Shown here in pieces: positions 6,266 to 44,039 of a stretch of 64,000 nucleotides of DNA (position 1 is its first letter; each line of letters begins with the position of its first letter). Location of the stretch: IMG/VR virus record IMGVR_UViG_3300000176_000003, positions 1 to 64,000 of that record; one strand, given 5' to 3'. The notes below the pieces were generated by a model. It did not search any database. It was not told the origin of the DNA and worked only from the letters and a program-made list of their open reading frames with translations. A program made the position numbers and the translations under genes. The DNA is from a virus. Taxonomy: Duplodnaviria > Heunggongvirae > Uroviricota > Caudoviricetes.

Positions 6266-6293
6266 TTGACATGAATTTTAAATGGCGTATGAT
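6266..6293 (+). promoter_or_regulatory. sigma70-like promoter TTGACA-N16-TATGAT
   Basis: TTGACA at 6266-6271 and TATGAT at 6288-6293, preceded by an A/T-rich stretch. This is the first of a series of similar promoters in the early block. Confidence 0.55.
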
Positions 6294-6310: not shown

Positions 6311-6583
6311 TTGGAGGGAACTGTGGTCCTAATAACTGTGTTAACCATTTTCTTTGTAATCAGCCTCTACAACATTTTAAAGATTATCCAGATTTATTAT
6401 TTTGATAAGCATTTTGCTAAGCGTATTGATGCGTATTGGGATAGTGTTGAGTCGCGCATAGAGAAGGGTGAGATTATCGATTGGGATAATGAACCTCGAT
6501 TTGCGGTCCACCAATCTTTCGATAAGTTTTCGAGTTCTATGCCTTGGGACTATAACTTTGATAGGATGATTATCTATGTCTGA
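6311..6583 (+). CDS. hypothetical small membrane protein
   Basis: N-terminal TM helix (VVLITVLTIFFVISLY). Lies directly downstream of the promoter. Confidence 0.4.
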   Translation: MEGTVVLITVLTIFFVISLYNILKIIQIYYFDKHFAKRIDAYWDSVESRIEKGEIIDWDNEPRFAVHQSFDKFSSSMPWDYNFDRMIIYV

Positions 6584-7364
6584 AATGATTGATTTTGGTT
6601 CTGGCCCAGTTCCAGCACATCGACACTCTAATGGAGGTGGATGGGTTGCCGACACTGCTCTTGTCACCGCCTCCGCTTATATCTCTGGTAGTGCTTGTGT
6701 CTATGGCAATGCTCATGTCTCTGGCGATGCTAGAGTCTATGGCAATGCTAGAGTCTATGGCAATGCTAGAGTCTATGGCAATGCTAAAATCCATGGCGAT
6801 GCTAATGTCTCTGACAATGCTTATGTCTCTGGCAATGCTTGTGTCTATGGCAATGCTCATGTCTATGGCGATGCTCATGTCTATGGCGATGCTTATGTCT
6901 CTGGCAATGCTCATGTCTCTGGCAATGCTAATGTCTATGGCGATGCTAATGTCTCTGGTAGTGCTCGAGTCTATGGCGATGCTAAAATCCATGAGCATAT
7001 GTGGGTATCATTCTCACATGTAACCACTGATCTCAGTACTGATTTAGTGGCTTCACTGCGTACTCAATGCAATCTCATGTTTATGAGAGATGAAGTCATC
7101 TGCTTTAAACGTGTTAAAGCTGATCTAAGCTCTGAATACGATGATAACTTCAAGTACGTGATAGGAGAATGGGCCAAAGTCAAAGATCCGGATATGTCTA
7201 ATAAGTCATGCGCACCTGGCCTCCACTTCTCTCATGCTACCTATTATGATGTAACACCTTCTAGCAAGACCCTGATATGCAAAGTTCTAAAAGATGACAT
7301 CATTACTATTCAACAAGGCAAGATTCGAGCCAAGAAAGCTTTAGTGCTGGGAGTATGTGAGTAA
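6576..7364 (+). CDS. hexapeptide-repeat (left-handed beta-helix-like) protein, paralog 1 of 4
   Basis: About 18 tandem 6-residue repeats V[YS]G[ND]A[xx] (VYGNAHVSGDARVYGNARVYGNAR...), followed by a roughly 110-aa non-repeat C-terminal domain. Confidence 0.7.
   Translation: MSEMIDFGSGPVPAHRHSNGGGWVADTALVTASAYISGSACVYGNAHVSGDARVYGNARVYGNARVYGNAKIHGDANVSDNAYVSGNACVYGNAHVYGDAHVYGDAYVSGNAHVSGNANVYGDANVSGSARVYGDAKIHEHMWVSFSHVTTDLSTDLVASLRTQCNLMFMRDEVICFKRVKADLSSEYDDNFKYVIGEWAKVKDPDMSNKSCAPGLHFSHATYYDVTPSSKTLICKVLKDDIITIQQGKIRAKKALVLGVCE
6699..7020 (+). repeat. tandem 18-bp coding repeats (gtctatggcaatgctaga-like)
   Basis: Near-identical 18-nt units encode the hexapeptide repeats. Units recur at 6716/6734/6752/6770. 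Confidence 0.8.
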
Positions 7365-7633
7365 TGGCTAAACAATATCGACTAAGAGAAACATTCAATT
7401 ACAATAACACTGGACCTACATACTGGGTTGTAGAAGAAAAGACGCTTTTTGACTGGAAGAATGTATATGGTGACGCTTGTTCTTATAGGTATGGTGGCCG
7501 CGATTCCTTTCCGTATGATGAAGCCAAACAAAGGCTAGAAAATTGTGTCAAACAAGCAGCACTAGACGAAGAAGCCAGTACATTTAAGCCTCGTATTCTC
7601 ACTCCACCCCTACCTGAAAGTGAACCGGAATGA
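7364..7633 (+). CDS. small hypothetical protein ending in KPRILTPPLPESEPE
   Basis: 89 aa. The C-terminal motif is shared with the 55-aa ORF at 9665..9832. Confidence 0.5.
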   Translation: MAKQYRLRETFNYNNTGPTYWVVEEKTLFDWKNVYGDACSYRYGGRDSFPYDEAKQRLENCVKQAALDEEASTFKPRILTPPLPESEPE

Positions 7634-7812
7634 GTAAGAAAAATCTTCCAACTAAAGTGTATCGTGATCATGCCATTGAAGAAGTCAAACGTTTGCGGTA
7701 TTGGTTTGCTGGCTTTAAAGCCGCTGGTGGAAAACTACCACAATGTATCGAAACTTTAAACTGTTTGGTTAAAATTCAAACCCTTCTAGAAAAGGTAGAA
7801 GTATCAGAATGA
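7630..7812 (+). CDS. hypothetical protein
   Basis: 60-aa ORF, translationally coupled (ATGA). Confidence 0.4.
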   Translation: MSKKNLPTKVYRDHAIEEVKRLRYWFAGFKAAGGKLPQCIETLNCLVKIQTLLEKVEVSE

Positions 7813-7985
7813 ATAACCATTATAAAGCTTTTCTATATGCCTGTATAATTTGGATAACTATTGCTGCGCTAATAGGCTTGCTGTATATAGCATCAACACA
7901 TTTTTGGTTGCTATTAGTGCTTGTAGGTATAGGAATATTTTGGCTTACCCATACTATTATTATGGATTATCTAGATCATGGATAG
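7809..7985 (+). CDS. small hydrophobic membrane peptide (58 aa, not in ORF track)
   Basis: ATGA overlap with the upstream stop. Two predicted TM helices (CIIWITIAALIGLLYI / WLLLVLVGIGIFWL). Confidence 0.4.
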   Translation: MNNHYKAFLYACIIWITIAALIGLLYIASTHFWLLLVLVGIGIFWLTHTIIMDYLDHG

Positions 7986-8316
7986 CCTATTTCTTTTAAT
8001 CTGGTTTCATTTCCTAGCAGACTTTCCTTTTCAAGGAGAATTTCTAGCAAAGGCCAAGAATCGATATAATCCAATCAAAGGATTCAATCCACTCCTTGCT
8101 TTATTTGCACATGCATATATTCATGCTGGTGCAGTATACATTATCACAGGCAGTTCCTTACTGTCTCTAATCGAACTGATTACTCATATGTGGATAGACG
8201 ATCAGAAGTGTAAGGGAGAAATTGATTCAGAAACCGATCAATTATACCATATTGTATTGAAGGTACTTTACTTTTTATATATGATTATTTTCCATACGAA
8301 AGGAATTATCTCGTGA
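7978..8316 (+). CDS. hypothetical membrane protein
   Basis: 112-aa ORF with hydrophobic segments. Confidence 0.4.
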   Translation: MDSLFLLIWFHFLADFPFQGEFLAKAKNRYNPIKGFNPLLALFAHAYIHAGAVYIITGSSLLSLIELITHMWIDDQKCKGEIDSETDQLYHIVLKVLYFLYMIIFHTKGIIS

Positions 8317-8660
8317 ATGTAGGATATTCGCCTCTTGAAGACATTCAATATGAACTACAATACATGCTTGACCCTACGTTTCGAGTTAATGATAATTTTT
8401 CTGATTGGCTCGAATTAGTCCCTTGCGTTGTGTGTAAGAATGGTCTAACATTCTCTATGCAAGCGTCATCTAGCCATTTTTGTACACCCAAGAGCAATGA
8501 TGGCCCTTGGACGCATGTTGAGATTGGATATCCATCAGAACACCTTTATGATTTGGAATTGTATCGGGGTGATAATGAAGAGGGTGTTTTTGGTCGAGTT
8601 CCTATTGAACTTGTCACACAAATTGTTTATGCTGCTGGAGGATTGAAAGACGATGCTTAA
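8313..8660 (+). CDS. hypothetical protein (GTG start)
   Basis: 115-aa ORF overlapping the upstream stop. Confidence 0.3.
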   Translation: MNVGYSPLEDIQYELQYMLDPTFRVNDNFSDWLELVPCVVCKNGLTFSMQASSSHFCTPKSNDGPWTHVEIGYPSEHLYDLELYRGDNEEGVFGRVPIELVTQIVYAAGGLKDDA

Positions 8661-8859
8661 GAGGAATCCTATTAGTGTTCTTGATGTTTCTGATGAAATC
8701 AATAACGTCAAGGTCATTCTTATGGTAAGGAATGGTGTAAAATTGGTTTATTCGCCAAACTATCTTACGATTATGCGTCGAGATAAAATCGACAGCGTTT
8801 TTAAAAATGATAGCGAAATCCAACTTGCCGTAGACCGATTTAACGATTTGGTGGGCTGA
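8653..8859 (+). CDS. hypothetical protein
   Basis: 68-aa ORF in an operon-like tight array. Confidence 0.35.
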   Translation: MLKRNPISVLDVSDEINNVKVILMVRNGVKLVYSPNYLTIMRRDKIDSVFKNDSEIQLAVDRFNDLVG

Positions 8860-9075
8860 CATATGATAACTACTGATGTTTGTGGAAATTGTATTTATTT
8901 TAAGAAAACTACATCTCAATGTCATGGCCTTCCTCCAACGACATTTGTTTTTAAGAATAGGAATGATGATCTAATTTTTGAACAGGCTCGGCCTTATGTG
9001 TCGGCTAATGATCTCAAATGTTCACTTTTTAATTGACACCGATCTGATTCCTGATATTATTGCTATATAATAAAT

Positions 9076-9309
9076 TTGGAGAAACCTATGACACGGCCTA
9101 TCACAATTACCTCGTCTAGTTCTAAGAACGGCACTCAGATTACTACACGATTTGTAGATGACGGAAGAGTGTCTGAGCATATCGAAATTTATGGTGATGA
9201 TACCTTTGCCTATGTGGATACAGGGTTTGAATCTACGGCTATGTTCCAGATCGAATGCATTCCGGCTATTATTAAGGGTCTAAAGCACCTGCAAAGGAAG
9301 ACGAAGTGA
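9076..9309 (+). CDS. hypothetical protein
   Basis: The likely true start is ATG 9088 after RBS GGAGAAACC. Confidence 0.4.
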   Translation: MEKPMTRPITITSSSSKNGTQITTRFVDDGRVSEHIEIYGDDTFAYVDTGFESTAMFQIECIPAIIKGLKHLQRKTK

Positions 9310-9497
9310 GCAATTATTATTCGTATCTGTACGTCGTTATGTGCGAGGATACTGGTGCTAGTGATATGCACCCTGGTGTCTCGGCTGTATTTGAAAGCCG
9401 TGAGAAGGCAGACGCATATGTCGAAAAGTGTATGGATGCTCAATATCAACTCAGGTATTATATCGATACATCTTTTCTAAACGTTTTTGAGGATTGA
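9306..9497 (+). CDS. small protein of the 'EKADAYVEK' paralog family
   Basis: 63 aa with motif F..REKADAYVEK. The same motif type appears in the ORFs at 9665, 15959 and 18187. Confidence 0.4.
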   Translation: MSNYYSYLYVVMCEDTGASDMHPGVSAVFESREKADAYVEKCMDAQYQLRYYIDTSFLNVFED

Positions 9498-9501
9498 TAT
9501 C

Positions 9502-9651
9502 ATGATCATTATGAATATTCTAAACATTTTTTTCATTATAATTGGTATTTTTTATCTAAACAAAATGGACCTAAATCCTTGTATAAGGGTAGTTTGGTGG
9601 CTATCGGTTGTTCTCAGTGCTATGTCTCTAGGTATGCGCCTGTTTAATTAG
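9502..9651 (+). CDS. small hydrophobic membrane peptide (49 aa)
   Basis: MIIMNILNIFFIIIGIFYL... Not in the ORF track. Confidence 0.35.
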   Translation: MIIMNILNIFFIIIGIFYLNKMDLNPCIRVVWWLSVVLSAMSLGMRLFN

Positions 9652-9664
9652 GGTAGTTTGGTAT

Positions 9665-9832
9665 ATGAATAAGGTATGGCTAGTTATTGAGAATTATGTC
9701 GCTCGTTATGAAGGCGACTATGACAGCACCGATGTAGATAAGATTTTTGCGACGAAAGAAGCAGCAGAAGCTTATCTAGAAGGTAAGCCTCGTATCCTGA
9801 CTCCTCCTCTACCGGATAAGGAACCGGAATAA
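9665..9832 (+). CDS. small protein (55 aa) ending in KPRILTPPLPDKEPE
   Basis: Shares its C-terminal motif with ORF 7364..7633 and the F.TKEAAEAYLE motif with the small paralog family. Confidence 0.45.
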   Translation: MNKVWLVIENYVARYEGDYDSTDVDKIFATKEAAEAYLEGKPRILTPPLPDKEPE

Positions 9833-9962
9833 TCTCATGATTAAAGACCTCTCCTTTAAAGCAATATGTCTAATAGTGGCTTTCTGGTTAGTGGTCATTA
9901 CTCTAAGTTATGCTGTTAAATGGTTGATGTAATATATTCTTTAAAACAGGAAAAAGTAAAAC

Positions 9963-10283
9963 ATGACATATTCTCTTTATAGGGTTTCTGATGGTATGGG
10001 GGACTCCGGTCCTATGTCAATGGCTCTTTGGCCATCCGACAACACAGAGGCTGAGAACTATCACATTTCGGGTGTAGAGTACGAGCATAGTGCTCGTCCT
10101 AGAGTGGGTGTAGCCATGAGAGTCGGAAGTATCGGCGTCAGGACTTTTCTGCAGGACTGGTGGCAGACGACTTTGATTACCGAGATTACTGATGAGTGGA
10201 AAGATACCACAGCTAATGGCGACGAAGTCGAATGCGTTCGATTTAAGACCGGTAACTCAACATATATCTGGAAGAAGTTTTAA
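9963..10283 (+). CDS. hypothetical protein
   Basis: 106-aa ORF with A-rich RBS context. Confidence 0.4.
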   Translation: MTYSLYRVSDGMGDSGPMSMALWPSDNTEAENYHISGVEYEHSARPRVGVAMRVGSIGVRTFLQDWWQTTLITEITDEWKDTTANGDEVECVRFKTGNSTYIWKKF

Positions 10284-10341
10284 CTTATAATAATCTTAGA
10301 TAAATTATTAGTATATTCCTCAATACAGTCGGAGACAAAAA

Positions 10342-10629
10342 ATGTTTAAGCGAATTATGTTGGGAACTGCTGTTCTCTGTACCATAGGTCTTACTATGGC
10401 ATTTAGCCAACCTAAGACCAGTAATATCATGCATAATACCTATCACCCACAAGTCGAACGTGAGATCGAGAGTATGCAGCTTGCCTATAGCGGTGTATCT
10501 ACCAAGGAAGATAAAGCTATGATCCGCACTCTGGCATGGAACCTAGTTCGAGATGATGATATCTCGTCTCTTCCTCCTAACCTACAGAATTTCTATAAGA
10601 CACTAGAAAAGGACGCAGTAAAGCAATGA
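10342..10629 (+). CDS. secreted/periplasmic small protein
   Basis: Signal-peptide-like N-terminus MFKRIMLGTAVLCTIGLTMAFSQ. RBS GGAGACAAAAAATG. Confidence 0.45.
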   Translation: MFKRIMLGTAVLCTIGLTMAFSQPKTSNIMHNTYHPQVEREIESMQLAYSGVSTKEDKAMIRTLAWNLVRDDDISSLPPNLQNFYKTLEKDAVKQ

Positions 10630-10832
10630 GTTATTCAGTTGAACTAACTTATGAAATGGTTGACACGATTATCTTAAAAGAACTTAAGTTGTGTCGGCAG
10701 AATTTTGTTGATGATTTGGCTAGGGGTAATGCTCGTGTCTTCTCTATTGATCCCGAAGAAGATGCTGTAGAAATTCAAAGGATGGTCGATGCTCTTAATC
10801 TTATCATTTCTTGGTATAGTGTACCCGAATGA
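10626..10832 (+). CDS. hypothetical protein
   Basis: 68 aa, coupled (ATGA). Confidence 0.35.
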   Translation: MSYSVELTYEMVDTIILKELKLCRQNFVDDLARGNARVFSIDPEEDAVEIQRMVDALNLIISWYSVPE

Positions 10833-10976
10833 GCCTAAATGATGAACCTTTAGATGGTCGTGCAGAATTAGTTCTTGAAATGAGTCGTGAAGAAATCTAT
10901 AATCTCATGATGATGGCTCATAGGCAAGATATTACTCTTAACAAGCTTATTGAAAAGCTGATAATCGATTATATAC

Positions 10977-11216
10977 ATGAATGGAGATATGACTGATATG
11001 AAGACATATTCTTATAATGAACCAGAATATGATGATGTCGGCAATATTGTAGGTAATCTGGTATATACTTTAACTGAAGAAGAGATTATCGATTCATATT
11101 ATGTTCATTGGTCTAGAGAAATGTGCCATCAACGCAAGGATCATCTAGTTACTAAAGACAATTGTATTGATGATTGGGTTGCGGTTAATTGGGCTTGGGA
11201 AGTTAATAATGACTGA
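10977..11216 (+). CDS. hypothetical protein
   Basis: 79-aa ORF. Confidence 0.3.
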   Translation: MNGDMTDMKTYSYNEPEYDDVGNIVGNLVYTLTEEEIIDSYYVHWSREMCHQRKDHLVTKDNCIDDWVAVNWAWEVNND

Positions 11217-11550
11217 AGAACCCAAAAAGACGATTGATTGGGATGAACTACAAAAACTTTCTGAACACATGAGAGAAAGTACTAATCAATACGAAAAGGA
11301 CTGTGATACCTATTGGAAGAACCTTTCTTATGATGATCAACTAAAGGCTTTCTATTCTGTAGTTAAACGTATACATAAAGGCGAACTTGAAGATCGTGGC
11401 TCTTATCGTTGGATTCTTTATGATGTATTTGGATTTGGTCCAGATTCTTATGTTATAGGTATGGATTGTGGATTTCTAGAGTTGCATAATTCTATCTATG
11501 ATGAAAAAGACTTAGAAGAATATTCTAAGCGAAAAGTTATTTACAAATGA
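11167..11550 (+). CDS. hypothetical protein
   Basis: 127-aa ORF. The start may be an internal ATG (MTEEPKK). Confidence 0.35.
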   Translation: MMIGLRLIGLGKLIMTEEPKKTIDWDELQKLSEHMRESTNQYEKDCDTYWKNLSYDDQLKAFYSVVKRIHKGELEDRGSYRWILYDVFGFGPDSYVIGMDCGFLELHNSIYDEKDLEEYSKRKVIYK

Positions 11551-11699
11551 AAGATCAATATGATCCTAATTCATGGGAAAACAGGTTCTTAATAGCTTGT
11601 ACTATTTGGGGTATGGGCACTTTACCTATGGCCATTGTTTGGGTTATCATGTATATTATCTTTTGGATCGTACAACATGTTAGAATTGGAATTATATAA
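11547..11699 (+). CDS. small hydrophobic membrane peptide (50 aa)
   Basis: ATGA-coupled. TM helix LPMAIVWVIMYIIFWIV. Confidence 0.35.
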   Translation: MKDQYDPNSWENRFLIACTIWGMGTLPMAIVWVIMYIIFWIVQHVRIGII

Positions 11700-12118
11700 T
11701 GACTATTTTTGAAACTATCAAAGCTGATGTCCTTCAGGCTCGTAAGGATCGTGACCAAACTAAGGTGAACGTACTTAATACGCTTATTGCAGAACTATGC
11801 CGAGAAACTAAGGAACCGAATGACGACCAAGTTGTAAAGGTTGTTAGGAAGTTTCTTAAGAATCTTGATATCAGTATGTACGCTGTTGCTAAGGCAATTC
11901 ATCTTACTCGTGAAAGTGATCTGAATACCCTTTCTCGTGAATATAAGATTGTGTCGGTATACAATAAGGAAGATGAAGCGGTTGATTTTCACTCCGTCGT
12001 TGATCAATTAATTGACGATAACCCTGGCAAGTCTATGGGTTGGTATCTTGGTCAAACCCTAAAGGCAGTAGGTGGAAATCCAATTGCTATTAAGACATAT
12101 CTAGAAAGCAAAATTTAA
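11699..12118 (+). CDS. GatB/YqeY-domain protein
   Basis: 139 aa. IKADVLQARKDRDQTKVNVLNTLIAEL ... KSMGWYLGQTLKAVGGNPIAIKTYLESKI matches the YqeY/GatB C-terminal domain pattern. Confidence 0.55.
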   Translation: MTIFETIKADVLQARKDRDQTKVNVLNTLIAELCRETKEPNDDQVVKVVRKFLKNLDISMYAVAKAIHLTRESDLNTLSREYKIVSVYNKEDEAVDFHSVVDQLIDDNPGKSMGWYLGQTLKAVGGNPIAIKTYLESKI

Positions 12119-12384
12119 TGAATAAGATTTTAGTACTAGCTATGGTTCTAACACTTACAGCCTGTCATAAGGTAGAACCACCAAAACAATATGATACCCT
12201 AGATAAGGTAAAAGATCGAATTGAAAACGGCGAAGCTGCAGTTGTGAGGGTGTGTCTTGAAGAAACCTATATCGTTAAGCTAGACGATAAGTATTATGTT
12301 CAGCATATTCATAGCGAACATAATATAGTAGGTGTACTAGAAGACGGTGTGCCTGTAGATAGCGTTTGTCAGGAAAAGAAGTAA
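12118..12384 (+). CDS. small lipoprotein
   Basis: Lipobox MVLTLTAC after the signal peptide. Confidence 0.5.
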   Translation: MNKILVLAMVLTLTACHKVEPPKQYDTLDKVKDRIENGEAAVVRVCLEETYIVKLDDKYYVQHIHSEHNIVGVLEDGVPVDSVCQEKK

Positions 12385-13181
12385 TGAAGATTAAACTAGC
12401 AAGTGACATACATTTGGAATTTTCTCCACATACAACTATTCGGCAAAATGAAACTCCGGTTGATGTATTAGTTCTTGCTGGTGATATTTGTGTTGGTGAC
12501 TATTTCACACGTCCTGTCGAGAGTCCTTATTATCAAGTAGCACACAATTTTGATCGGTTCTTTGCTATTGTTTCTGATGAGTTTGAGAATGTAATCTATG
12601 TTCCCGGCAACCATGAATATTATCGTGGTTATATTGATAGAACGCTAGATGATATCCGCGAAGCTCTGTCCAAGTACAAGAACATTCATATTCTAAATGA
12701 TCAGTTTGTTGATATTGGTGATACTCGATTTATTGGTTCTACTTTGTGGACTGATATGCATAGGGGTGATCCTCTTACTATGGAAACTCTTCGACATGGT
12801 ATGAACGACTTTAAGTTGATTGAGAATAAGGCTACTCATCGGAAGTTTCTACCCAAGGATGCTTTAGCGGTTCATATTCAATCAAGAAAGTTTATCTTTG
12901 ATACTGCTAAGACTCACGATAAGTGTGTGGTAGTTTCTCATCATGCTCCTTCTGAAATGTCTGTCCATCCTCGGTATCGTCATGATTATCATATGAATGG
13001 TGGTTATTATTCTAATATAGAAGACGAGATCATCGATCATCCTTCTATTAAAGCCTGGATGCATGGACATATGCACGACTCATTTGTTTATATGTTAGGG
13101 TCTACTTCGGTCTATTGTAATCCAAAAGGCTACAATGACCAGAATCCACATTATAATAGGAACTTTGTTTATGAGTTATAA
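12384..13181 (+). CDS. calcineurin-like metallophosphoesterase
   Basis: Motifs ASDIHLEF, GDICVGD, GNHEYY and GHMHDS. The open frame extends up to 12366. Confidence 0.75.
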   Translation: MKIKLASDIHLEFSPHTTIRQNETPVDVLVLAGDICVGDYFTRPVESPYYQVAHNFDRFFAIVSDEFENVIYVPGNHEYYRGYIDRTLDDIREALSKYKNIHILNDQFVDIGDTRFIGSTLWTDMHRGDPLTMETLRHGMNDFKLIENKATHRKFLPKDALAVHIQSRKFIFDTAKTHDKCVVVSHHAPSEMSVHPRYRHDYHMNGGYYSNIEDEIIDHPSIKAWMHGHMHDSFVYMLGSTSVYCNPKGYNDQNPHYNRNFVYEL

Positions 13182-13443
13182 GGATTTATCTGCTCGTCTT
13201 AGAGTACAAGCAGAGAACGTAGAAGAGGACGGGTGGTTCAATGCTGCTCGTCTAATGCGGGGTGCTGCTGATGAACTTGAAGAACTTAAAGCCAGAAATG
13301 CCGAGTTAACAAAACATCTTCTAATTACTACAGAAGAGTCTTGGCCTTATATTCATCAATGGTGTTCTATTGACCGAGTAAAAAAGAATTGGCTTGATGC
13401 CAGAGAATTTTTGCGTGGCAATGATCCAAAGGTTAACTATTAA
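13135..13443 (+). CDS. hypothetical coiled-coil protein
   Basis: 102-aa ORF. The likely start is the internal Met in MSYKDL. Confidence 0.35.
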   Translation: MTRIHIIIGTLFMSYKDLSARLRVQAENVEEDGWFNAARLMRGAADELEELKARNAELTKHLLITTEESWPYIHQWCSIDRVKKNWLDAREFLRGNDPKVNY

Positions 13444-13445
13444 TC

Positions 13446-14192
13446 ATGAATAATGCAGTATTCTATCACTACTTTATTCCTGATGGGTCTATTGTTATGT
13501 GGTCATATTGGCTAGATGAACAGGCTCGTCTTATGATAGAGAGTGGACTTAAGGATAATGCCAAGGTCTATATGTGTATTACTATGCCAACTCATTATGG
13601 TAGTATGCACAATATGGAATTTCATGCAGACAGGAGTTCTAATAAATTCAACTTTGCTCAAAAAGTAGTAGAGTATATCAATAACAGATATCCTTGGATT
13701 ATCATTCTTAGTGTGCGGTCTACTCAAGAATTTAATCTATTTGAGGGACCAACCCTAGAAAAAATGTGGGAATATTCAAAAGTTCACAATGGTTCTGTTC
13801 TTTACATTCACAGCAAAGGTTCTCATAGTATTAATCTTGGCGGTCTTGCTGTAAAAAATTGGTTCGAAGTCCTCAATCACTTTCTAATCACTGAATGGAG
13901 AGAATGTCTAAAAGACCTAGAAAAGTTTGACCTTGTTGGTGTTCAGGATGCTAACCCGGTCAAAATTAAATACTTAAATGATATGAAAACTAACAATTTA
14001 GTCTCTGGTAATTTTTACTGGACAACCACCGAATACTTGGTTAATCTACCAAAACCTAAATTGTTAGAAAGTCGATATGATTTTGAACGATGGGTGTTGA
14101 CAAACGATCCTGTGGTGGGTTATAGAGTCGATACTAAAACAAACCACTACCGAGACTATTGTTTCGTGGAAAATCTTTTGGAGATAAAATGA
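13446..14192 (+). CDS. hypothetical protein
   Basis: 248 aa with no confident motif. Confidence 0.45.
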   Translation: MNNAVFYHYFIPDGSIVMWSYWLDEQARLMIESGLKDNAKVYMCITMPTHYGSMHNMEFHADRSSNKFNFAQKVVEYINNRYPWIIILSVRSTQEFNLFEGPTLEKMWEYSKVHNGSVLYIHSKGSHSINLGGLAVKNWFEVLNHFLITEWRECLKDLEKFDLVGVQDANPVKIKYLNDMKTNNLVSGNFYWTTTEYLVNLPKPKLLESRYDFERWVLTNDPVVGYRVDTKTNHYRDYCFVENLLEIK

Positions 14193-14767
14193 TTACCGTT
14201 CCATTTAAACGAGTTGCCGACCGTCTGATTCTTGATACCGACGTTATGAGTATCATTCGTAAGCGTGATGTCTATCTGGCTGGGGGTGCTCTTCGGGGTA
14301 TCTTCGGTAAGGACGAAACCATTATGGATTATGATGTTTTCTTTCCTAATGGATTGGTTTCTCATGAAGTTGGTCTTGACCTTGAAGACATTGGATTTGA
14401 AGTCATTTTCAAGTGTCCTGAAGGCAAGCTTACTTCCTATAAGCGCGGTGATCTTAAGGTTCAGCTTATCACCGAAAATTTCTATCCTTCTCCCGAAAAT
14501 CTGATCGACACCTTTGATATTAATGCCTGCCGCATTGCATTTTGGGCTGATATGATCTACACTGACCGAAACGCTATTCGAGATATGCGTAGGAAGCGAA
14601 TTACCCTGCATAAGGTGGATTTTCCTATGGCTACCTTTAAGCGTATCGTAAAATACACAAAGAAGAATTATGTGCTTGACAATCGAGCCGTACAATTCTA
14701 TGTTAGCGATATTGTTGATAAGACCCTAAAGGGTATTCCGGTGGATGGGAGATTTTACATTGACTGA
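14189..14767 (+). CDS. minimal nucleotidyltransferase (pol-beta superfamily, CCA-adding/poly(A)-polymerase head-like)
   Basis: DVYLAGGALRGIFGKD..DYDVFF is GG[AS]xR plus DxD, typical of the tRNA-NT/PAP head domain. Strong RBS GGAGATAAAATG at 14181-14191. Confidence 0.55.
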   Translation: MITVPFKRVADRLILDTDVMSIIRKRDVYLAGGALRGIFGKDETIMDYDVFFPNGLVSHEVGLDLEDIGFEVIFKCPEGKLTSYKRGDLKVQLITENFYPSPENLIDTFDINACRIAFWADMIYTDRNAIRDMRRKRITLHKVDFPMATFKRIVKYTKKNYVLDNRAVQFYVSDIVDKTLKGIPVDGRFYID

Positions 14768-14942
14768 CATTGGTCCTGGTGATCTAGTGGAATGTATTGA
14801 TGCTGATGGATATGTCCCTTATATCGCGGCTATCGGGGGTGGCGATTATATCGTAATTGATATTGACAACGAAACCGGTAAGGTGGTAGGGTGGGTTCCT
14901 CTCACGGAAGATGAACTCCGTGAAGCTGCAAAGGAAATGTAA
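14745..14942 (+). CDS. hypothetical protein
   Basis: 65 aa, acidic. Confidence 0.35.
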   Translation: MGDFTLTDIGPGDLVECIDADGYVPYIAAIGGGDYIVIDIDNETGKVVGWVPLTEDELREAAKEM

Positions 14943-15133
14943 TGAAGGTATCTGAACTGATTGAAGCTCTATCTAAGCTTCCTCCTGATATGGACGTTGT
15001 GGTGATTGATGATCTAACTGATGGGACGTATAATAAGATCGATGATATCATATACCATACTGTAGAAGAATTAGCTAATTACATGCATCTTTCTGCCGTA
15101 TATCCCAATGGCGTCGTTTACTTGGATTCATAA
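14942..15133 (+). CDS. hypothetical protein
   Basis: 63 aa, ATGA-coupled. Confidence 0.35.
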   Translation: MKVSELIEALSKLPPDMDVVVIDDLTDGTYNKIDDIIYHTVEELANYMHLSAVYPNGVVYLDS

Positions 15134-15563: not shown

Positions 15564-15776
15564 GATTTTACGCATTATGGAGAACGAAATGACCACCAAT
15601 TACGTCCTAACCACGGCTGAAGGCCTTCGCCAATTCTATGCCGAGTTTGCCAGCCTTTTGGCCGACATCGACTACCTTGGTCTGACCGAGTACGAGATCG
15701 AGGTCGAAACCGCAGATTGACATTAATTCGAGGCCTGATAAAATGGTCTTACAAAATCGGAAACAAGGAAACGAAC

Positions 15777-15962
15777 ATGGCTTTTATCGAAAACCCTATG
15801 AATGTCTATGGCAATGCTTATGTCTCTGGCCATGCTAATGTCTCTGACAATGCTAATGTCTTTGGCGATGCTGTAGTCTCTGGCAATGCTGTAGTCTTTG
15901 CTCGCGGTACAGTCTTTGATGCTCCCCAACTATTCTCTTTTGATGATTCAGGAGTAATGTGA
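15777..15962 (+). CDS. short hexapeptide-repeat protein, paralog 2 of 4
   Basis: MAFIENPMNVYGNAYVSGHANVSDNANVFGDAVVSGNAVV. The N-terminus MA[FY]IEN is shared with paralogs 3 and 4. RBS AAGGAAACGAAC. The ORF-track start at 15717 is probably too early. Confidence 0.55.
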   Translation: MAFIENPMNVYGNAYVSGHANVSDNANVFGDAVVSGNAVVFARGTVFDAPQLFSFDDSGVM

Positions 15963-21757: not shown

Positions 21758-22243
21758 ATGGCTTATATTGAAAATTCTAACAAAGTCTCTGGCAATGCTA
21801 ATGTCTATGGCGATGCTCTAGTCTATGGCGATGCTGTAGTCTCTGGCAATGCTAATGTCTTTGGCGATGCTAAGATCCATGGCGATGCTCATGTCTATGG
21901 CGATGCTCTAGTCTATGGCGATGCTGTAGTCTCTGGCAATGCTAATGTCTCTGGCAATGCTTTTGTCTCTGGTGAAGCGAATATTTCATCTAATGATGAT
22001 TGGTTTAGCCTGATCTATAGTGGTAAGACTTTGACTGGATATCGCTCTCGCAATGCTGATGGTTATGAACTGAATATTGATGGTCTCGCGGTCACTATTG
22101 GTGATGTGGCTGATGATCTGACGCCCAATCAATTGAATGCGATTGATAAGTGGTCTAAGCCTACAAAGTCTGAGATTGATATTAGGATTGAAGCCCTGAA
22201 GACTGAATTGGCTGCTTTGGAACAAGCTATTAAGGATCGTTAA
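21758..22243 (+). CDS. hexapeptide-repeat protein, paralog 3 of 4
   Basis: MAYIENSNKVSGNANVYGDALVYGDAVVSGNANVFGDAKIHGDAHVYGDA..., then the conserved C-terminal module SSNDDWFS...SRNADGYELNIDG. RBS AAGGAAAATTGATAGCTATG. Confidence 0.65.
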   Translation: MAYIENSNKVSGNANVYGDALVYGDAVVSGNANVFGDAKIHGDAHVYGDALVYGDAVVSGNANVSGNAFVSGEANISSNDDWFSLIYSGKTLTGYRSRNADGYELNIDGLAVTIGDVADDLTPNQLNAIDKWSKPTKSEIDIRIEALKTELAALEQAIKDR

Positions 22244-22437: not shown

Positions 22438-22761
22438 ATGGCTTATATTGAAAACGAGAATAAGGTCTATGGCAGTGCTTATGTCTCTGGCAATGCTAAG
22501 GTCTATGGCAATGCTAATGTCTATGGCAATGCTGTAGTCTCTGGCGATGCTAGTGTCTATGGTGAAGCGAATATTTCATCTAATGATGATTGGTTTTCTA
22601 TTACTATTCAGAATAAGATCATTACTGCCTATAAGTCTCGTAATGCTGATGGTTACGAAATCAATATCAATGGAATCAATAAAACCCTGGATGAAGTGAA
22701 ACAATACTTCGGTTCTATTCAATGTGAACTAATCGAATCCTGGAATAAACAATTGAACTAA
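22438..22761 (+). CDS. hexapeptide-repeat protein, paralog 4 of 4
   Basis: MAYIENENKVYGSAYVSGNAKVYGNANVYGNAVVSGDASVYGEANISSNDDWFS...SRNADGYEININGI. Confidence 0.65.
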   Translation: MAYIENENKVYGSAYVSGNAKVYGNANVYGNAVVSGDASVYGEANISSNDDWFSITIQNKIITAYKSRNADGYEININGINKTLDEVKQYFGSIQCELIESWNKQLN

Positions 22762-40724: not shown

Positions 40725-43700
40725 ATGGCAATAAATACAGCTAATATTCAACCACAATTTGACACTTTTGCTGGTTGGATCACAAAAACAAATATTATAG
40801 CATATGATATGTCAACTATTGTAGTAACAACAGATACTACAACAAATGGGGCTATTACTACAGGCAATGCTTATGTAAATGGTATTTTTAGTGCTAATAC
40901 CTTCACTGTATTAAATGATATACGAGGTGGTAATGGATCAACTCCAGCGACCTTAACCATTTCGTCAAATGTAGCAATGTCAAATGCCTTGGGTATTTCT
41001 ATCGGAAATTCTTCAATCAATACGACGATTTCTTCCTCCAATTTAAATACAACCTCAGTATTTGCAAATACAGCATCAATAATTTCTACTTTAACAGTAG
41101 GATCAAATGTTGGTTTAACTACAACTACAGTATTCGTAGGCAATTCTACAACCAACTCATTTATTAATTCTACGGCATTTTCATCAAATTCGTTTATTGC
41201 AAATTCAGCATTAACAGTAGGATCAAATGTTGGTTTAACTACAACTACAGTATTCGTAGGCAATTCCACAACAAATACAATTATCAATTCAACTTCAGTT
41301 ACTACTAATGCTGTAGTTGCTAATGCTTCTGTGAGTGTCGGCGCTAATGTTGGTTTAACTCCATCTACAATATTTGTAGGTAATGCCACAATTAATACTA
41401 TTGTAAATGCTACATCATTCTCTGGCACAGCCAATAATACAACAAACTTTGCTGGATTATCTTCTTCGACCTGGGCTGGATATATTACAGGTAATGCTGC
41501 TAGTGCATACTCTAATGCTGTTACTAATGCTGCATTTATGGCTGGTCAAGCTTATTCTAATGCTGTCGCCAATGCTGCTGCCATTTACCAAACTACTGCA
41601 GGATTAGCCGCCAACGTATTAACATTAGCCTCAAACTCAACAACATATCATGGAAATTCTTCTGGTACATTAGCAAATGTTGCATCTTGGATTACCGGTA
41701 ATGCTGCTAGTGCAGCAGCAACAGCATATTCTAATGCGATAGCTATTGCAGCAAATGCAAGCAATATAACAAATGGAACAATTCCTACAGCAAGATTACC
41801 AGCAACAATTAATGCAACAGCCCAACTTAACGTTGGCGGAAATGTAAATATTAACACCACAGGAATCAGCATTTCAACTGGAGGATCTATTACACTAATA
41901 GATCCGTCAAACGTTTCCAATTTTACAACCATTAGTGCTGGTGGTCTAACCTTACCGGCTGGAAGTAATAGTGCAGTTACATCATTTAATGGTAGAGCAG
42001 GAATTGTAGTATTAACTTCATCTGATATTGTGGGTAATACTACAGTCGGTTTAAATTACACACCGTTATCGGCAAACTCTTCTGGCACAATTAATGGATC
42101 ATTAACTCTAACAGGAAGCGATCTTCTAGCCAGAAGTGTTGTTGCTAATGGGCAATGTATTGTGGGAAATACCACAACAAATACAACAATTACAGCCACT
42201 TTATTCAGTTTAGGAAATAGTACAGCTAATGTAACTATTAACTCTACAGCATTTTCTGGCACATCCAACAACTCATTAAATCTTGGCGGATCTTCTTTAT
42301 CAACTATACAAAGCCAAATTACTGGAAACTCAGCCACTGCTTATTCTAACGCAACATCTTATGCTGACACAAAATCTTCTGCGGCTTATTCTAACGCAAC
42401 ATCTTATGCTGACACAAAATCTTCTGCGGCTTATTCTAACGCAACATCTTATGCTGACACAAAATCTTCTGCGGCTTATTCTAATGCTGTTGCTAATGCT
42501 GCAGCACTATATCAAACTACTGCAGGATTAAGTGCTAACGTATTAACACTTTCAGCTAATATGGCTACTTATCATGGAAACTCTTCTGGTACATTAGCAA
42601 ATGTTGCATCTTGGATTAGCGGTAATGCTGCTAGTGCCTATGCAAATGCTGTCGCCAATTCTGCTGCGATTTATCAAACTACTGCAGGATTGTCTGCAAA
42701 CGTAGCAACATTAACAGCAAACAATTCTACCAATCTAAATGGTCAACCAGCGTCATATTATACTAATGCTACCAATATTTCAACAGGAAAATTGCCTGTT
42801 GCACAAATTAATACAACTGCACAATATACATATACAAATACATTCACCGTCAATGCCGTACTAATTACAGCCAATAGCACAGGAACAGTAGGGTATTTTG
42901 GAGCTAATGGTAATGTTGGTGTAGGAACAAGTTCTCCAGCTTATACACTAGATGTAGCAGGAAATTTACATAGTACTGGTATTGCTCAATTTGATTCCAA
43001 TTTAACCGTTTCTGGATCATTAGTTGTTAGTGGAAATCTAACAATAGCTGGATCTACTACCTACGTAAACACATCAGTAATCAGCACATCAGATAAAGCA
43101 ATTTATCTTTCTGCAAATTCAATAAGTGCAGCTATATCAGATGGTTCAGGAATTGTCGCAACATCTGCATCATCTTTACTATTTAACAATGCAACAACAT
43201 CTTGGCAGTCAAATGTTGCAATTACACCATTAGCAAATAATGCTTTAAATTTGGGTGGTCCATCCAACTATTGGGCTAATGTTTATGCTAACCAAATTTA
43301 CGGCACTTTAGTAACTACATCTCAACCAAATATTACAGCAAATAATTCTACAAATTTCAATAGCCAACCAGCATCATATTATACTAATGCCACCAATATT
43401 TCAACAGGAACTGTTCCTACAGCAAGACTTGGTTCTGGTACAGCCAACTCAACTACCATTCATGTAGGAAATAGTAGTTGGGCTACTATTCCAACTGTTC
43501 TTGGATATACTCCATATAATGCAACAAATCCATCTGGATATATTACTTCATCAGCGTTGAGTCCATATGCATTATTAAGCGGTGCAACATTTACCGGAGA
43601 TATTACAAGCTATCGTTCGGGTTCTCCAACTACAGGCTTAATATATCTTGGTAATAATTCTGGTAATACATATTTGTGGTATGATGGAGCAAATTTTAGA

Positions 43701-44039
43701 TTAAACGGTGGACCATTATTGGTAGCTAGTAGTATTACAGCTACTGGTGACGTAACAGCATTCTCAGATTCTAGATTGAAGACAGATTTACAAAAGATTG
43801 AAAATGCATTAGATAAAGTAGATCAATTAACTGGTTATACCTTTAATCGTAATGATACAGATTCAAATAAACGATCAACGGGCCTTATTGCTCAAGATGT
43901 GCAAAAAGTACTTCCAGAAGCAGTTATCGAAGGCGATGAATATTTGTCTCTAGCATATGGCAACCTTGTCGGTCTTCTGGTAGAAGCCATTAAAGAACTA
44001 AAAGATCAGGTTGAAGAAATTAAGGCTAAGTTAGCTTAA
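40725..44039 (+). CDS. tail fibre protein with C-terminal peptidase-S74 intramolecular chaperone domain
   Basis: The C-terminus SDSRLKTDLQKIENALDKV..GYTFNRND..GLIAQDVQKVLPEAV..LSLAYGNLVGLLVEAIKEL matches the endosialidase-type autoproteolytic chaperone domain. The body contains many ITGNAASAYSNAVANAAA/YQTTAGLSANV repeats. Confidence 0.7.
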   Translation: MAINTANIQPQFDTFAGWITKTNIIAYDMSTIVVTTDTTTNGAITTGNAYVNGIFSANTFTVLNDIRGGNGSTPATLTISSNVAMSNALGISIGNSSINTTISSSNLNTTSVFANTASIISTLTVGSNVGLTTTTVFVGNSTTNSFINSTAFSSNSFIANSALTVGSNVGLTTTTVFVGNSTTNTIINSTSVTTNAVVANASVSVGANVGLTPSTIFVGNATINTIVNATSFSGTANNTTNFAGLSSSTWAGYITGNAASAYSNAVTNAAFMAGQAYSNAVANAAAIYQTTAGLAANVLTLASNSTTYHGNSSGTLANVASWITGNAASAAATAYSNAIAIAANASNITNGTIPTARLPATINATAQLNVGGNVNINTTGISISTGGSITLIDPSNVSNFTTISAGGLTLPAGSNSAVTSFNGRAGIVVLTSSDIVGNTTVGLNYTPLSANSSGTINGSLTLTGSDLLARSVVANGQCIVGNTTTNTTITATLFSLGNSTANVTINSTAFSGTSNNSLNLGGSSLSTIQSQITGNSATAYSNATSYADTKSSAAYSNATSYADTKSSAAYSNATSYADTKSSAAYSNAVANAAALYQTTAGLSANVLTLSANMATYHGNSSGTLANVASWISGNAASAYANAVANSAAIYQTTAGLSANVATLTANNSTNLNGQPASYYTNATNISTGKLPVAQINTTAQYTYTNTFTVNAVLITANSTGTVGYFGANGNVGVGTSSPAYTLDVAGNLHSTGIAQFDSNLTVSGSLVVSGNLTIAGSTTYVNTSVISTSDKAIYLSANSISAAISDGSGIVATSASSLLFNNATTSWQSNVAITPLANNALNLGGPSNYWANVYANQIYGTLVTTSQPNITANNSTNFNSQPASYYTNATNISTGTVPTARLGSGTANSTTIHVGNSSWATIPTVLGYTPYNATNPSGYITSSALSPYALLSGATFTGDITSYRSGSPTTGLIYLGNNSGNTYLWYDGANFRLNGGPLLVASSITATGDVTAFSDSRLKTDLQKIENALDKVDQLTGYTFNRNDTDSNKRSTGLIAQDVQKVLPEAVIEGDEYLSLAYGNLVGLLVEAIKELKDQVEEIKAKLA
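42339..42490 (+). repeat. three perfect tandem 45-bp coding repeats (SNATSYADTKSSAAY x3)
   Basis: gcttattctaacgcaacatcttatgctgacacaaaatcttctgcg is repeated exactly 3 times, followed by a partial copy. Confidence 0.85.

Follow-up and report, generated by a model that had tools for sequence, protein, structure and literature searches.

The closest described relatives of the proteins studied here were the YdcK proteins of E. coli and Salmonella, which had solved structures (PDB 2F9C and 2PIG) and whose repeat was represented in Pfam by PF18836 ('YdcK beta solenoid repeat'). The hexapeptide acyltransferases LpxA, LpxD, GlmU, PglB and DapD and the gamma-carbonic anhydrases were likewise built on a left-handed parallel beta-helix, in which residue i is aliphatic and residue i+4 small. 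Bactofilins (PF04519) were similar in having short repetitive beta-helices, which are right-handed and polymerise. For the C-terminal part of one of our proteins, the closest described system was the rIIB protein of phage T4. This early protein is needed to escape prophage-encoded exclusion, e.g., by lambda Rex, and acts with rIIA at the membrane against Rex-type exclusion. Since we know of no molecular mechanism for rIIB or for any member of the YdcK-repeat family, the function proposed below was inferred from context.

We analysed a stretch of 64,000 nucleotides (the window) from a T4-like phage. Four ORFs that an initial annotation had reported as a family of hexapeptide-repeat proteins were all present on the + strand and were named p1 to p4 (Table 1). 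Tandem Repeats Finder (TRF), run on the whole window, placed period-18 arrays only at these four sites (p1, 6698-6985, 16.0 copies, score 331; p2, 15801-15890, 5.0 copies; p3, 21785-21972, 10.4 copies; p4, 22461-22562, 5.7 copies), and a six-frame regular-expression scan of the window found hexad arrays at the same sites only. The arrays had been described as 6 to 18 perfect repeats. Hexad arrays were indeed present, but they ranged from 5 to 17 units in register, and the strict pattern V[YSF]G[ND]A[HRKNVYL] was fitted by 12/17 hexads in p1, 3/5 in p2, 8/11 in p3 and 3/6 in p4. The remaining hexads deviated from it at one position (e.g., IHGDAN, VSDNAY and VSGEAN), and no residue was conserved among the units beyond V, G and A. 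Similarly, the 18-nt units were less uniform than 'near-identical', since 32 of the 39 were distinct and the TRF matches were 79-83%, but 11 of the 18 positions were invariant or nearly so. Variation was found mainly at nucleotides 5, 10 and 16-18, and the divergent units were those at the edges of the arrays. The MA(Y/F)IEN start of three proteins and the module ISSNDDWFS...SRNADGYE(L/I)NI(D/N)G common to p3 and p4 were as described. What had been overlooked was the separate C-terminal domain of p1, related to T4 rIIB. All four genes had an AGGA-type ribosome-binding site 8-13 nt 5' of the ATG. Two further ORFs, at 6570..6998 on the - strand and at 6589..7023 in the +2 frame, were open only because the repeat had no stop codon in those frames.

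Table 1. Positions of the repeat genes, their parts and candidate promoters in the window.
Feature	Position	Strand	Description
Candidate sigma-70-type promoter	6266..6293	+	TTGACA-16-TATGAT, 11/12; 5' of ORF 6311..6583; consensus match only
p1 gene	6576..7364	+	262 aa; N-terminal YdcK-type motif remnant (DFG...GGW), 17 regular hexads, C-terminal globular domain
p1 hexad array	6681..6986	+	17 x 18 bp; includes a 42-bp exact tandem self-repeat
p1 C-terminal domain	6987..7361	+	125 aa; DUF7666-like; almost certainly homologous to T4 rIIB residues 206-302; ADP-ribosyltransferase-like predicted fold
Candidate sigma-70-type promoter	15717..15744	+	TTGACA-16-TAAAAT, extended TG, 11/12; 33 nt 5' of the p2 ATG; consensus match only
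p2 gene	15777..15962	+	61 aa; MAFIEN cap, 5 hexads (15804-15893), short unrelated tail; no C-terminal module
p3 gene	21758..22243	+	161 aa; MAYIEN cap, 11 hexads (21785-21982), module ISSNDDWFS..GYELNIDG (21983-22084), linker, C-terminal helix
p3 heptad-patterned C-terminal helix	22169-22240	+	heptads read off the sequence
p4 gene	22438..22761	+	107 aa; MAYIEN cap, 6 hexads (22465-22572), p3-type module (22573-22674), short tail

The initial annotation recognised no characterised phage family in these proteins. However, the repeat was already catalogued in databases, though uncharacterised, namely as PF18836 and as PHROGs 7964, 5070 and 20532. The gathering cut-off of PF18836 (30 bits) was exceeded by p1 (43.2 bits) and p3 (35.8 bits), while p2 (18.1 bits) and p4 (19.2 bits) fell under it because their arrays were short. 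These two proteins matched phrog_7964 (E 9e-11 for p2 and 5e-15 for p4), and p4 also matched phrog_20532 (E 3e-8). Moreover, the YdcK structure 2f9c was matched by sequence (E 1.8e-10), and single-chain prediction confidently gave the left-handed beta-helix that had been expected from the periodicity, with YdcK as the nearest structure. Sequence and predicted structure together made it highly probable that p1-p4 had the YdcK-type left-handed beta-helix fold and belonged to this family. On the other hand, none of them was a YdcK orthologue, since the NCBIfam equivalog model NF040481 (YdcK_fam) had a cut-off of 350 bits and gave 46.2 for p1 and no more than 24 for p2-p4. In comparison to YdcK, the phage arrays were far more regular and the C-terminal ends were unlike; the proteins also came from phages, existed in several copies and varied in length.

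More than 6,600 database proteins matched p1, and homologues were found in 72 GenBank phage records with very different hosts. No paper on phage proteins with YdcK repeats, on DUF7666 or DUF5758, or with the Pfam accessions was found by full-text literature search. No near-identical DNA was found in GenBank phages, the exact 24-mer of the p1 5' end was absent from the IMG/VR and JGI metagenome contigs, and the exact p1 protein was not on record in the gene index. The C-terminal module of p3 and p4 had no match in Pfam and was unrelated to T4 rIIB. Among PDB sequences it gave only a weak match, to residues 22-85 of influenza HA2 (best E 4.6e-4); homology to HA2 was rejected and the match was put down to the GY..N..GY motif and the coiled-coil composition.

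It had been predicted that repeat number would vary, and array lengths did differ among near-identical genomes as assembled. The close relatives were found by exact-protein look-ups. The closest of them, ENA metagenome contig k141_174784, had no substitutions relative to the window across ~32 kb and differed by whole-hexad indels only, a pattern that would also be expected from short-read repeat collapse. Its p1 array had 16 hexads rather than 17, being without one VYGNAR unit, and its p3 array had 6 rather than 11, the 90-bp difference lying between direct repeats with a 60-bp exact core; the p2 gene was identical in both. In another group of relatives, with identity of 99.8-99.9%, L007 had 6 hexads while L008, L009, L010 and L022 had 9. 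At about 98% identity, L013 had 23 hexads and L014-16 had 19, and the proteins P0018 and P0028 differed by 2 hexads. Over the whole family the number of hexads was 3-30, and array indels were multiples of 18 bp without exception. A Logan contig broke exactly at the p1 array and ended just 5' of the p2 array.

The silent sites of the arrays were almost invariant. Valine at position 1 was encoded by GTC in 36/36 units, compared with 8-13% in other genes of the window, and glycine by GGC in 33/37 units, compared with 12%. Valine at position 6 of the same arrays was encoded by GTA, not GTC. Arrays in other phages had fixed codon sets of their own, namely GTG/GGC, GTT/GGT or GTC/GGT. Therefore, concerted evolution was suggested, and it was very likely that the arrays evolved in concert and were variable in length. 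Since each phage had its own codon set, a DNA motif conserved across phages was ruled out. A diversity-generating retroelement target was also ruled out: position 18, where the nucleotide was not adenine, varied in 15/39 units, and, at odds with adenine mutagenesis of this type, variation tracked surface codons and the 39 units lay in four genes rather than in one VR/TR pair. The arrays resembled tandem-repeat contingency genes and intragenic repeats under concerted evolution, in that the silent sites of in-frame units were kept the same, the units at the edges diverged and near-identical genomes carried unequal numbers of copies. In contrast to those genes, the unit in p1-p4 was 18 bp long and encoded a structural turn element, and the changes affected how long the protein was without turning the gene on or off.

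The C-terminal domain of p1 (its head) was, judging from profile and sequence comparisons, almost certainly homologous to the C-terminal domain of T4 rIIB. It was aligned to rIIB residues 206-302 by hhalign (95.35%, E 2e-8) and matched PHROGs 609, 36818, 2886 and 11221, named 'RIIB' (E 2.8e-12). In addition, the A4 HMM scored 33.8 bits on T4 rIIB (NP_049889), and BLASTP aligned a stand-alone homologue of the head (P0271) to rIIB with E 7e-12. The conserved residues of the head were K178, C212, H217, Y223, D241, K249 and R251 in p1 numbering, and the elements common to it and T4 rIIB were W/Y-K, F, C-x-x-G-L-H, Y, D and K-x-R. However, T4 rIIB lacked S49, D52 and Y57, which were invariant in the DUF7666 group. 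Both proteins came from T4-type phages, and both genes lay outside the structural core. The full rIIB architecture was not found in p1: the N-terminal HTH-like region (HTH matches at residues 7-50 of T4 rIIB) and the middle region were absent, and the beta-helix occupied their place as the N-terminal two-thirds of the protein. A tblastn search with T4 rIIB gave no match in the window, p2-p4 had no rIIB-type domain, and nothing resembling rIIA was found among the ORFs of the 64-kb window (the genome was about 156 kb).

The predicted fold of the head resembled the ADP-ribosyltransferases (ARTs). Their superfamily (SCOP d.166.1) contained PARPs, the diphtheria-toxin group, Tpt1/KptA, BC2332-like proteins, the Rhs toxins TreTu and TreX, and AcrIF11; BC2332 itself was classified as an ART in the literature. 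The conserved residues of the head could not be assigned to a canonical H-Y-E or R-S-E motif. PDB sequence and profile searches with the head were empty, and a Foldseek search of the PDB with its model gave no significant match. Among 233 cluster representatives, the head was almost always C-terminal to a beta-helix or stood alone, and no macro domain or similar NAD-linked fusion partner was present. The only long 'hit' (P0314) was spurious, being a cadherin-repeat protein. Enzymatic ART activity of the p1 head was considered possible but unlikely.

The genes p1-p4 were located in an island of ~20 kb between gp5/PAAR and gp25/gp6. It consisted of small + strand ORFs with GC content above the surroundings and also encoded a nuclease, a phosphoesterase and an SPFH protein. 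The ORF at 6311..6583 preceded p1, and its stop overlapped the p1 start. In T7-like, temperate and T4-like phages alike, homologues fell, as far as their gene neighbourhoods indicated, within accessory or early regions. In the T7-like phage Aer_P220 they preceded the gene for RNA polymerase, in prophage Javan174 they lay between a cro-like switch and RecT, and in another T4-like contig they were close to 30.3, an Rnl1-type RNA ligase gene and a KTI12/AAA_33 kinase-like gene. Strong sigma-70-like promoter matches, by consensus only, were also present 5' of p1 and p2. These observations supported the placement of the paralogues in an accessory, probably early, region, as the initial annotation had it; its suggestion of a dosage-important function found no support. 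PADLOC defence models had no match. A neighbouring gene was labelled 'Gad2' in a precomputed table only, and neither the local Pfam copy nor PADLOC gave the same label.

In our model, p1-p4 would be small proteins of the cytoplasm that form one multigene family and are probably made early, each built around a left-handed beta-helix that a single chain forms, of the kind seen in the YdcK beta-solenoid. In each hexad, V at position 1 and A at position 5 would pack into the core and G at position 3 would form the turn, so that positions 2 (Y/S), 4 (N/D) and 6 (any residue) would be exposed and would hold nearly all of the variation. The length of the rod would change quickly, as the genome comparisons showed with the repeat-collapse reservation for the closest pair, because the DNA units of 18 bp are alike, and unequal recombination or slippage at them could gain or lose whole hexads. 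The rod itself might serve as a scaffold or adaptor, with C-terminal ends that differ by paralogue: an rIIB-C/DUF7666 domain in p1, where K, C-x-x-G-L-H, Y, D and K-x-R are conserved, the conserved module of ~34 residues followed by a short coiled-coil-like helix in p3, the same type of module without the helix in p4, and nothing in p2. We estimated roughly even chances that the proteins were modular early host-interaction or counter-defence proteins built on a length-variable beta-helix scaffold. Their function would be host take-over or counter-defence early in infection; an early counter-defence role in particular was possible but fell a little short of an even chance. Specifically, p1 might counter abortive infection encoded by prophages, as the C-terminal domain of rIIB does, and an NAD-dependent activity or one akin to it might be involved. 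The shorter paralogues p2-p4, in which no effector was recognisable, could be binding partners, caps or decoys.

Several other explanations had to be weighed. It was scarcely credible that the arrays were repeats of non-coding DNA, serving as binding sites or recombination hot spots or arising as artefacts of assembly, with accidental ORFs. Several frames were open through them and assemblies broke at them, but all four genes had the same strand and frame as well as ribosome-binding sites, their N- and C-terminal non-repeat parts were conserved, thousands of homologues existed at the protein level with different codons, the fold prediction was confident, and the indels kept to multiples of 18 bp. 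Trimeric LpxA-like acyltransferases, or gamma-carbonic-anhydrase-like enzymes, would share the beta-helix and would modify a sugar, lipid or metabolite. This was extremely unlikely, as p1-p4 did not match PF00132 (Hexapep, cut-off of 27 bits) even at E<=1 and every NCBIfam score was far under its cut-off, which agreed with the initial expectation that no well-characterised acyltransferase family was involved. Furthermore, the hexads were uninterrupted, with no substrate-binding loops, flanking nucleotide- or CoA-binding domain, other accessory domain, conserved catalytic His or other active-site residues; p2 and p4 had only about 2 helical turns; and array length was unconstrained, whereas length changes of 1, 2, 3, 4 or 5 hexads, as seen in close relatives, would rotate or shift an active site at a subunit interface. 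The location between the gp5/PAAR and gp25/gp6 baseplate blocks, together with weak PHROG matches (E 1e-3 to 5e-5) to beta-helical stretches within proteins of the baseplate wedge and the tail fibre, could point to virion components such as fibres, baseplate decorations or injected proteins. We considered this very unlikely: the PHROG matches spanned the repeat only and the proteins had 61-262 aa, the island of small ORFs differed in composition and contained the genes listed above, there were sigma-70-type promoter matches (by consensus only), and homologues in T7-like and temperate phages were in early operons rather than structural modules.

It was improbable that the proteins were bactofilin-like and polymerised in infected cells to build filaments or scaffolds. 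The score of p1 against PF04519 was near the threshold (27.1 bits, cut-off of 27.9), several phage homologues were named 'polymer-forming cytoskeletal protein' by PGAP, and the very short p2 and p4 might need end-to-end stacking for stability. However, p3 scored 18.7 bits, p2 and p4 had no match, and the predicted handedness was that of the LbH class. The filament-forming role suggested initially had the sub-threshold match of p1 as its sole basis. The best reading was that p1-p4 were not acyltransferases, bactofilins or virion parts. Another alternative was that the beta-helix surface itself was active and the C-terminal pieces were only caps, the proteins being acidic rods that sequester a host factor by mimicry or as decoys, for instance as a DNA mimic, as an anti-restriction protein or by soaking up a defence sensor. 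The acidity of p2 (pI 4.05, net charge -5), p3 (pI 4.38, -11) and p4 (pI 4.61, -4.5) was in favour of this, and the variable residues were all on the surface, with a Tyr/Ser and Asn/Asp alphabet typical of binding surfaces. The early or accessory gene location also spoke for it, and the rapid change in length and surface was consistent with an arms race. On the other hand, p1 was near neutral (pI 6.4) with an array rich in Arg, Lys and His, there was no evident DNA-like periodicity of charge, indels of a single hexad left no face-specific pattern, and neither the PHROG search nor PADLOC matched p1-p4 to known anti-defence or defence families. The C-terminal modules were more conserved than the surfaces and were therefore argued to matter. 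Overall, a decoy of this kind was possible but unlikely; the initial annotation had likewise suggested a decoy or inhibitor.

Repeat proteins of this type were ordinary in that databases already contained thousands of them, and their family turned up repeatedly among the early genes of phages that differ widely, the home of host take-over and anti-defence genes. New here was direct evidence that rod length shifts within very short evolutionary times with the silent sites frozen, a combination that marked the arrays as fast-evolving interfaces. It was also a warning that short-read assemblies misreport such arrays. The modularity of the family was equally relevant, since one type of beta-helix was combined with different C-terminal ends, one of which, with an ART-like predicted fold, was almost certainly a homologue of the domain conserved at the C-terminus of T4 rIIB. 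If the fold assignment holds, it would suggest specific mutants and assays for both this family and rIIB. A bolder version of the model, which we regarded as rather unlikely, would unite DUF7666/DUF5758 and the rIIB C-domain in one unrecognised ART clade, carried in thousands of phages on a recombination-tuned YdcK-type beta-helix. In that case p1 would be an rIIB-like counter-defence enzyme and its head-less paralogues would be modulators or decoys. If true, the 70-year-old question of rII biochemistry would gain a testable handle, namely NAD-dependent modification via C-x-x-G-L-H, Y and D. Of the smaller paralogues, p2, whose 5 hexads make fewer than 2 helical turns, may be the remnant of a gene in decay. 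A protein identical to p4 (P0020) was present on three metagenome contigs.

All four open reading frames assigned to hexapeptide-repeat paralogues by the initial annotation, here p1 to p4, were recovered at the coordinates claimed, all on the plus strand (see the table). Their period-18 arrays, in which each 18-bp unit encodes one six-residue hexad, were the only ones detected by Tandem Repeats Finder in the whole window, and a six-frame regular-expression scan of the window returned the same arrays and no others. In-register hexads numbered 17 in p1, 5 in p2, 11 in p3 and 6 in p4. The strict hexad pattern proposed earlier fitted 12/17, 3/5, 8/11 and 3/6 of them, respectively, with the remainder off at one position. 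The common N-terminus MA(F/Y)IEN at the start of p2, p3 and p4 was confirmed, as was the C-terminal module ISSNDDWFS..(Y/K)(R/K)SRNADGYE(L/I)NI(D/N)G common to p3 and p4. An AGGA motif lay 8-13 nt before the ATG of each gene; p2-p4 were acidic (pI 4.0-4.6) and p1 was neutral. The arrays were clearly coding, and the minus-strand and +2 frame ORFs over the p1 array were by-products of a repeat without stop codons.

Repeat genes p1-p4 and candidate promoters in the window
Feature	Position	Strand	Basis
p1 gene, 262 aa	6576..7364	+	ORF
p2 gene, 61 aa	15777..15962	+	ORF
p3 gene, 161 aa	21758..22243	+	ORF
p4 gene, 107 aa	22438..22761	+	ORF
Candidate sigma-70-type promoter, before p1 operon	6266-6293		strong consensus match only
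Candidate sigma-70-type promoter, directly 5' of p2	15717-15744		strong consensus match only

The family, which had not been recognised initially, was catalogued as Pfam PF18836 ("YdcK beta solenoid repeat"). Against this model p1 and p3 scored 43.2 and 35.8 bits (cut-off 30), and p2 and p4 fell under the cut-off because they were short; PHROGs 7964, 5070 and 20532, with no function assigned, were matched by p1, p2, p3 and p4. The sole solved structure related by sequence was YdcK (2F9C/2PIG; E 1.8e-10), and the earlier call of a left-handed beta-helix was correct. Both family and fold were established, and p1-p4 were real, but they belonged to a family already catalogued and uncharacterised. 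In left-handed beta-helices, i and i+4 are core positions and three hexads form one turn. On this geometry, Val at position 1 and Ala at position 5 would be the core residues, positions 2, 4 and 6 would be exposed, and the predicted rods would comprise about 6 turns in p1, about 3.7 in p3, 2 in p4 and 1.7 in p2. An indel of one hexad would turn the C-terminal end by 120 degrees. Since indels of 1-5 hexads were tolerated and no face-specific pattern was visible in the arrays, the rod was considered a general-purpose spacer or scaffold, not an active surface with exact phasing. Additionally, p2 and p4 seemed too short for stability alone, suggesting stacking or co-assembly or, for p2, decay.

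Array length differed among relatives. A 156-kb ENA metagenome contig (ERZ27271863 k141_174784) spanned window 1-32243 and, base by base, had zero substitutions outside the arrays. It carried 16 hexads in p1 versus 17 in the window (one VYGNAR unit, 18 bp) and 6 in p3 versus 11 (90 bp, flanked by direct repeats that share an exact core of 60 bp), a picture that repeat collapse by a short-read assembler would also give in this 100%-identical pair. A Logan contig (L003), 100% identical to window 6918-15436, began within the p1 array and stopped just before the p2 array; arrays were therefore assembly breakpoints, and repeat numbers from short reads need care. In a second lineage, a paralogue had 6 hexads in contig L007 versus 9 in L008, L009, L010 and L022, with flanks 99.8-99.9% identical, and the count of 9 was the same in four independent assemblies (two ENA contigs, one JGI contig and one IMG/VR record). 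A third lineage showed 23 versus 19 hexads at about 98% identity, and the homologues P0018 and P0028 differed by two hexads. Overall, the p3/p4-type family ranged from 3 to 25 hexads, and one Curvibacter phage protein had 30. Variation in copy number was secure over slightly longer time-scales; a very fast rate was not. Apart from the arrays, the DUF6745 gene of the second lineage encoded 308 aa in L007 (3995-4921) and 420 aa in L008 (3659-4921), contigs that were 99.9% identical.

Silent sites within the units were nearly frozen. Across the window's 39 units, GTC encoded Val at position 1 in 36/36 cases, GGC encoded Gly in 33/37, GCT encoded Ala in 37/39, and GTA encoded Val at position 6 in 5/5. 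In other window genes, the shares were 8-13% for GTC among Val codons and 12% for GGC among Gly codons. Units varied at nt 5 (Tyr/Ser), nt 10 (Asn/Asp) and nt 16-18, always with an amino-acid change, and the divergent units were the first and last of each array. Fixed codons were also found elsewhere, namely GTG/GGC/GCT in Aeromonas phage Aer_P220 (17/17) and prophage Javan174 (22/22), GTT/GGT/GCT in the Curvibacter phage (30/30) and GTC/GGT/GCT in most IMG/VR relatives; the Oceanotoga phage array was codon-heterogeneous. Outside the arrays, p3 and p4 did show synonymous differences. This pattern showed that the arrays evolve in concert, through unequal exchange both among units and among paralogues. 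Codon preference was rejected as the cause; so was a cross-phage DNA motif, since phages differed in their fixed codons. A DGR did not fit either, because position 18, which is not adenine, varied in 15/39 units.

The C-terminal ends of the four proteins were modular. The p3/p4 module (~34 residues), absent from p2, showed strong conservation across about 100 database proteins, with D, W, F, T, Y, S-R-N, G-Y-E and N invariant; p3 and most homologues continued after it with a linker and then a heptad-patterned helix. It matched unknown families at most in Pfam and PHROG and was unrelated to rIIB. A profile of module and tail (21983-22240, 22573-22758) gave weak matches to influenza HA2 22-85 (best E 4.6e-4, one family), most likely due to the GY..N..GY motif and coiled-coil composition.

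The C-terminal end of p1 beyond its array (residues 138-262, here the p1 head) was a separate domain kept in hundreds of homologues, whose usual architecture was an N-domain, YdcK repeats and DUF7666/DUF5758. A single-sequence search yielded 233 cluster representatives, almost all stand-alone or C-terminal to a beta-helix; the invariant residues were K178, S186, F192, Y194, C212, G215, H217, S219, D241, G248, K249 and R251. One stand-alone homologue, P0271, matched PHROGs named "RIIB lysis inhibitor" (E 2.8e-12), and the head was therefore compared with T4 rIIB (from NC_000866). The head profile aligned to rIIB residues 206-302 in hhalign with 95.35% probability (E 2e-8), T4 rIIB scored 33.8 bits with the HMM of this profile, and BLASTP of P0271 against T4 rIIB gave E 7e-12. 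The head and rIIB shared W/Y-K, F, C-x-x-G-L-H, Y, D and K-x-R, and no Pfam model covered the aligned part of rIIB. As judged by these comparisons, the p1 head is homologous to the rIIB C-terminal domain. However, p1 was not an rIIB orthologue because it was without the HTH-like N-terminus and middle region of rIIB, and no canonical rIIB was found in the window.

The predicted head may tentatively be assigned an ADP-ribosyltransferase (ART)-like fold. The ART-type structures listed for it were PARP15 (6.2), Rhs toxin TreTu (6.1), KptA/Tpt1 (5.6), TreX (5.4), anti-CRISPR AcrIF11 (5.2), then PARP13, PARP4 and PARP10, CARDS toxin, diphtheria and pertussis toxins, Arr, scabin, DarT, RES, Tne2 and MbcT. 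SCOP d.166.1 holds BC2332, CC0527, AvrPphF-ORF2 and Tpt1 (PMC3000352), and structural-genomics analysis linked BC2332 to the diphtheria-toxin group (PMC3024214). By eye, DUF5758 resembled a circularly permuted DUF7666: when the DUF5758-type homologue P0030 was set against p1 residues 138-262, its G-[KR]-x-C-R..VLE strand block stood before, not after, the S..D..F.Y...C..G[IL]HF core.

The window came from a T4-like myovirus, encoding gp53-like, gp5 (OB fold and lysozyme), PAAR, gp25, gp6 and gp7-like proteins. By gp6, the closest cultured relative was Caulobacter phage Cr30 (only 43% identity), and no near DNA match was found among GenBank phages. Genes p1-p4 lay in a ~20-kb island (about 4.9-25.7 kb) of small plus-strand ORFs between gp5/PAAR and gp25/gp6, with higher GC (0.37-0.43 versus 0.32-0.35) and positive GC skew. 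Other island products were an Endonuclease_NS nuclease, a metallophosphoesterase, an SPFH/Band_7 protein, a GP88-like protein and DUF3307- and DUF7249-type proteins. The counterpart of the gene at 14159-14767 was labelled PF26128 "Gad2" (anti-Gabija) in a precomputed table for two relatives' contigs; the window gene had no match in the local Pfam copy, a library possibly older than the model, or in PADLOC. At the border of island and structural genes, immediately 5' of the gp25-like gene (25703), intergenic positions 25395-25660 formed the GC-richest spot of the window. There a GGGTCCC(C/T)n motif recurred about 11 times, including the 22-bp units GGGTCCCTTTCAGAAAAGTATA (x3) and GGGTCCCTTTGATCCGTT..AC (x2).

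Homologues were widespread. p1 matched more than 6,600 proteins at least (8,000 candidates scanned in a 90%-clustered collection), and 72 GenBank phage records held homologues, many at several places. Hosts included Streptococcus (Sfi19 orf229 among them), Liberibacter, Bacillus, Vibrio, Xanthomonas, Edwardsiella, Aeromonas, Bacteroides and Mycobacterium. Annotations disagreed: hypothetical, acyltransferase, polymer-forming cytoskeletal, "glycerol kinase" and "MFS transporter". In each of four genomes examined for context the location was early or accessory, namely upstream of the RNA polymerase gene in T7-like Aer_P220, flanked by a cro-like switch and RecT/SSB in Javan174, adjoining a DNA methyltransferase in the Oceanotoga phage, and near 30.3, an Rnl1-type RNA ligase gene and a KTI12/AAA_33 kinase-like gene in another T4-like contig (169 kb). 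In four Vibrio phages of the Nahant collection (MG592510, MG592511, MG592418, MG592579), several depositor-annotated CRISPR-spacer matches lay under beta-helix homologues.

Judging from the candidate promoters and the context in other phages, p1-p4 would be expressed early, and their role may be in host take-over or counter-defence. T4 needs its rIIB protein to get past exclusion systems carried by prophages, lambda Rex for example. In such a role, p1 would act via its rIIB-like, possibly ART-like, head, and the shorter paralogues might serve as partners, caps or decoys. Our analysis added direct evidence of length-variable, homogenised arrays, the modular build of the proteins, and the connection between the p1 head and T4 rIIB, which, with the tentative ART-like fold, offers testable hypotheses for an old problem.

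The most plausible rival, a surface-binding decoy or mimic, was unlikely. A bactofilin-like polymer came next and was rather improbable: the match was just under threshold (27.1 versus 27.9), and the fold class was that of left-handed helices. We gave still less credence to a virion component. An acyltransferase, the characterised family that the initial annotation had named as its refutation, was very improbable since Hexapep did not match, NCBIfam scores were far under cut-off, and the hexads ran without interruption with conservation limited to V, G and A. Least credible of all was a non-coding repeat, which we considered barely conceivable.

Other repeats were observed in the window. In the tail-fibre/baseplate region, a 1407-aa ORF (51981-56204) contained about 20 repeats of 147 nt (49 aa) spanning 52497-55935, RCC1/beta-propeller-blade-like by eye. 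A 1104-aa ORF (40725..44039) contained a perfect 45-bp x 3.2 tandem repeat (42339-42484, 100% matches) and a further 120-bp x 2.6 repeat at 41092-41402.
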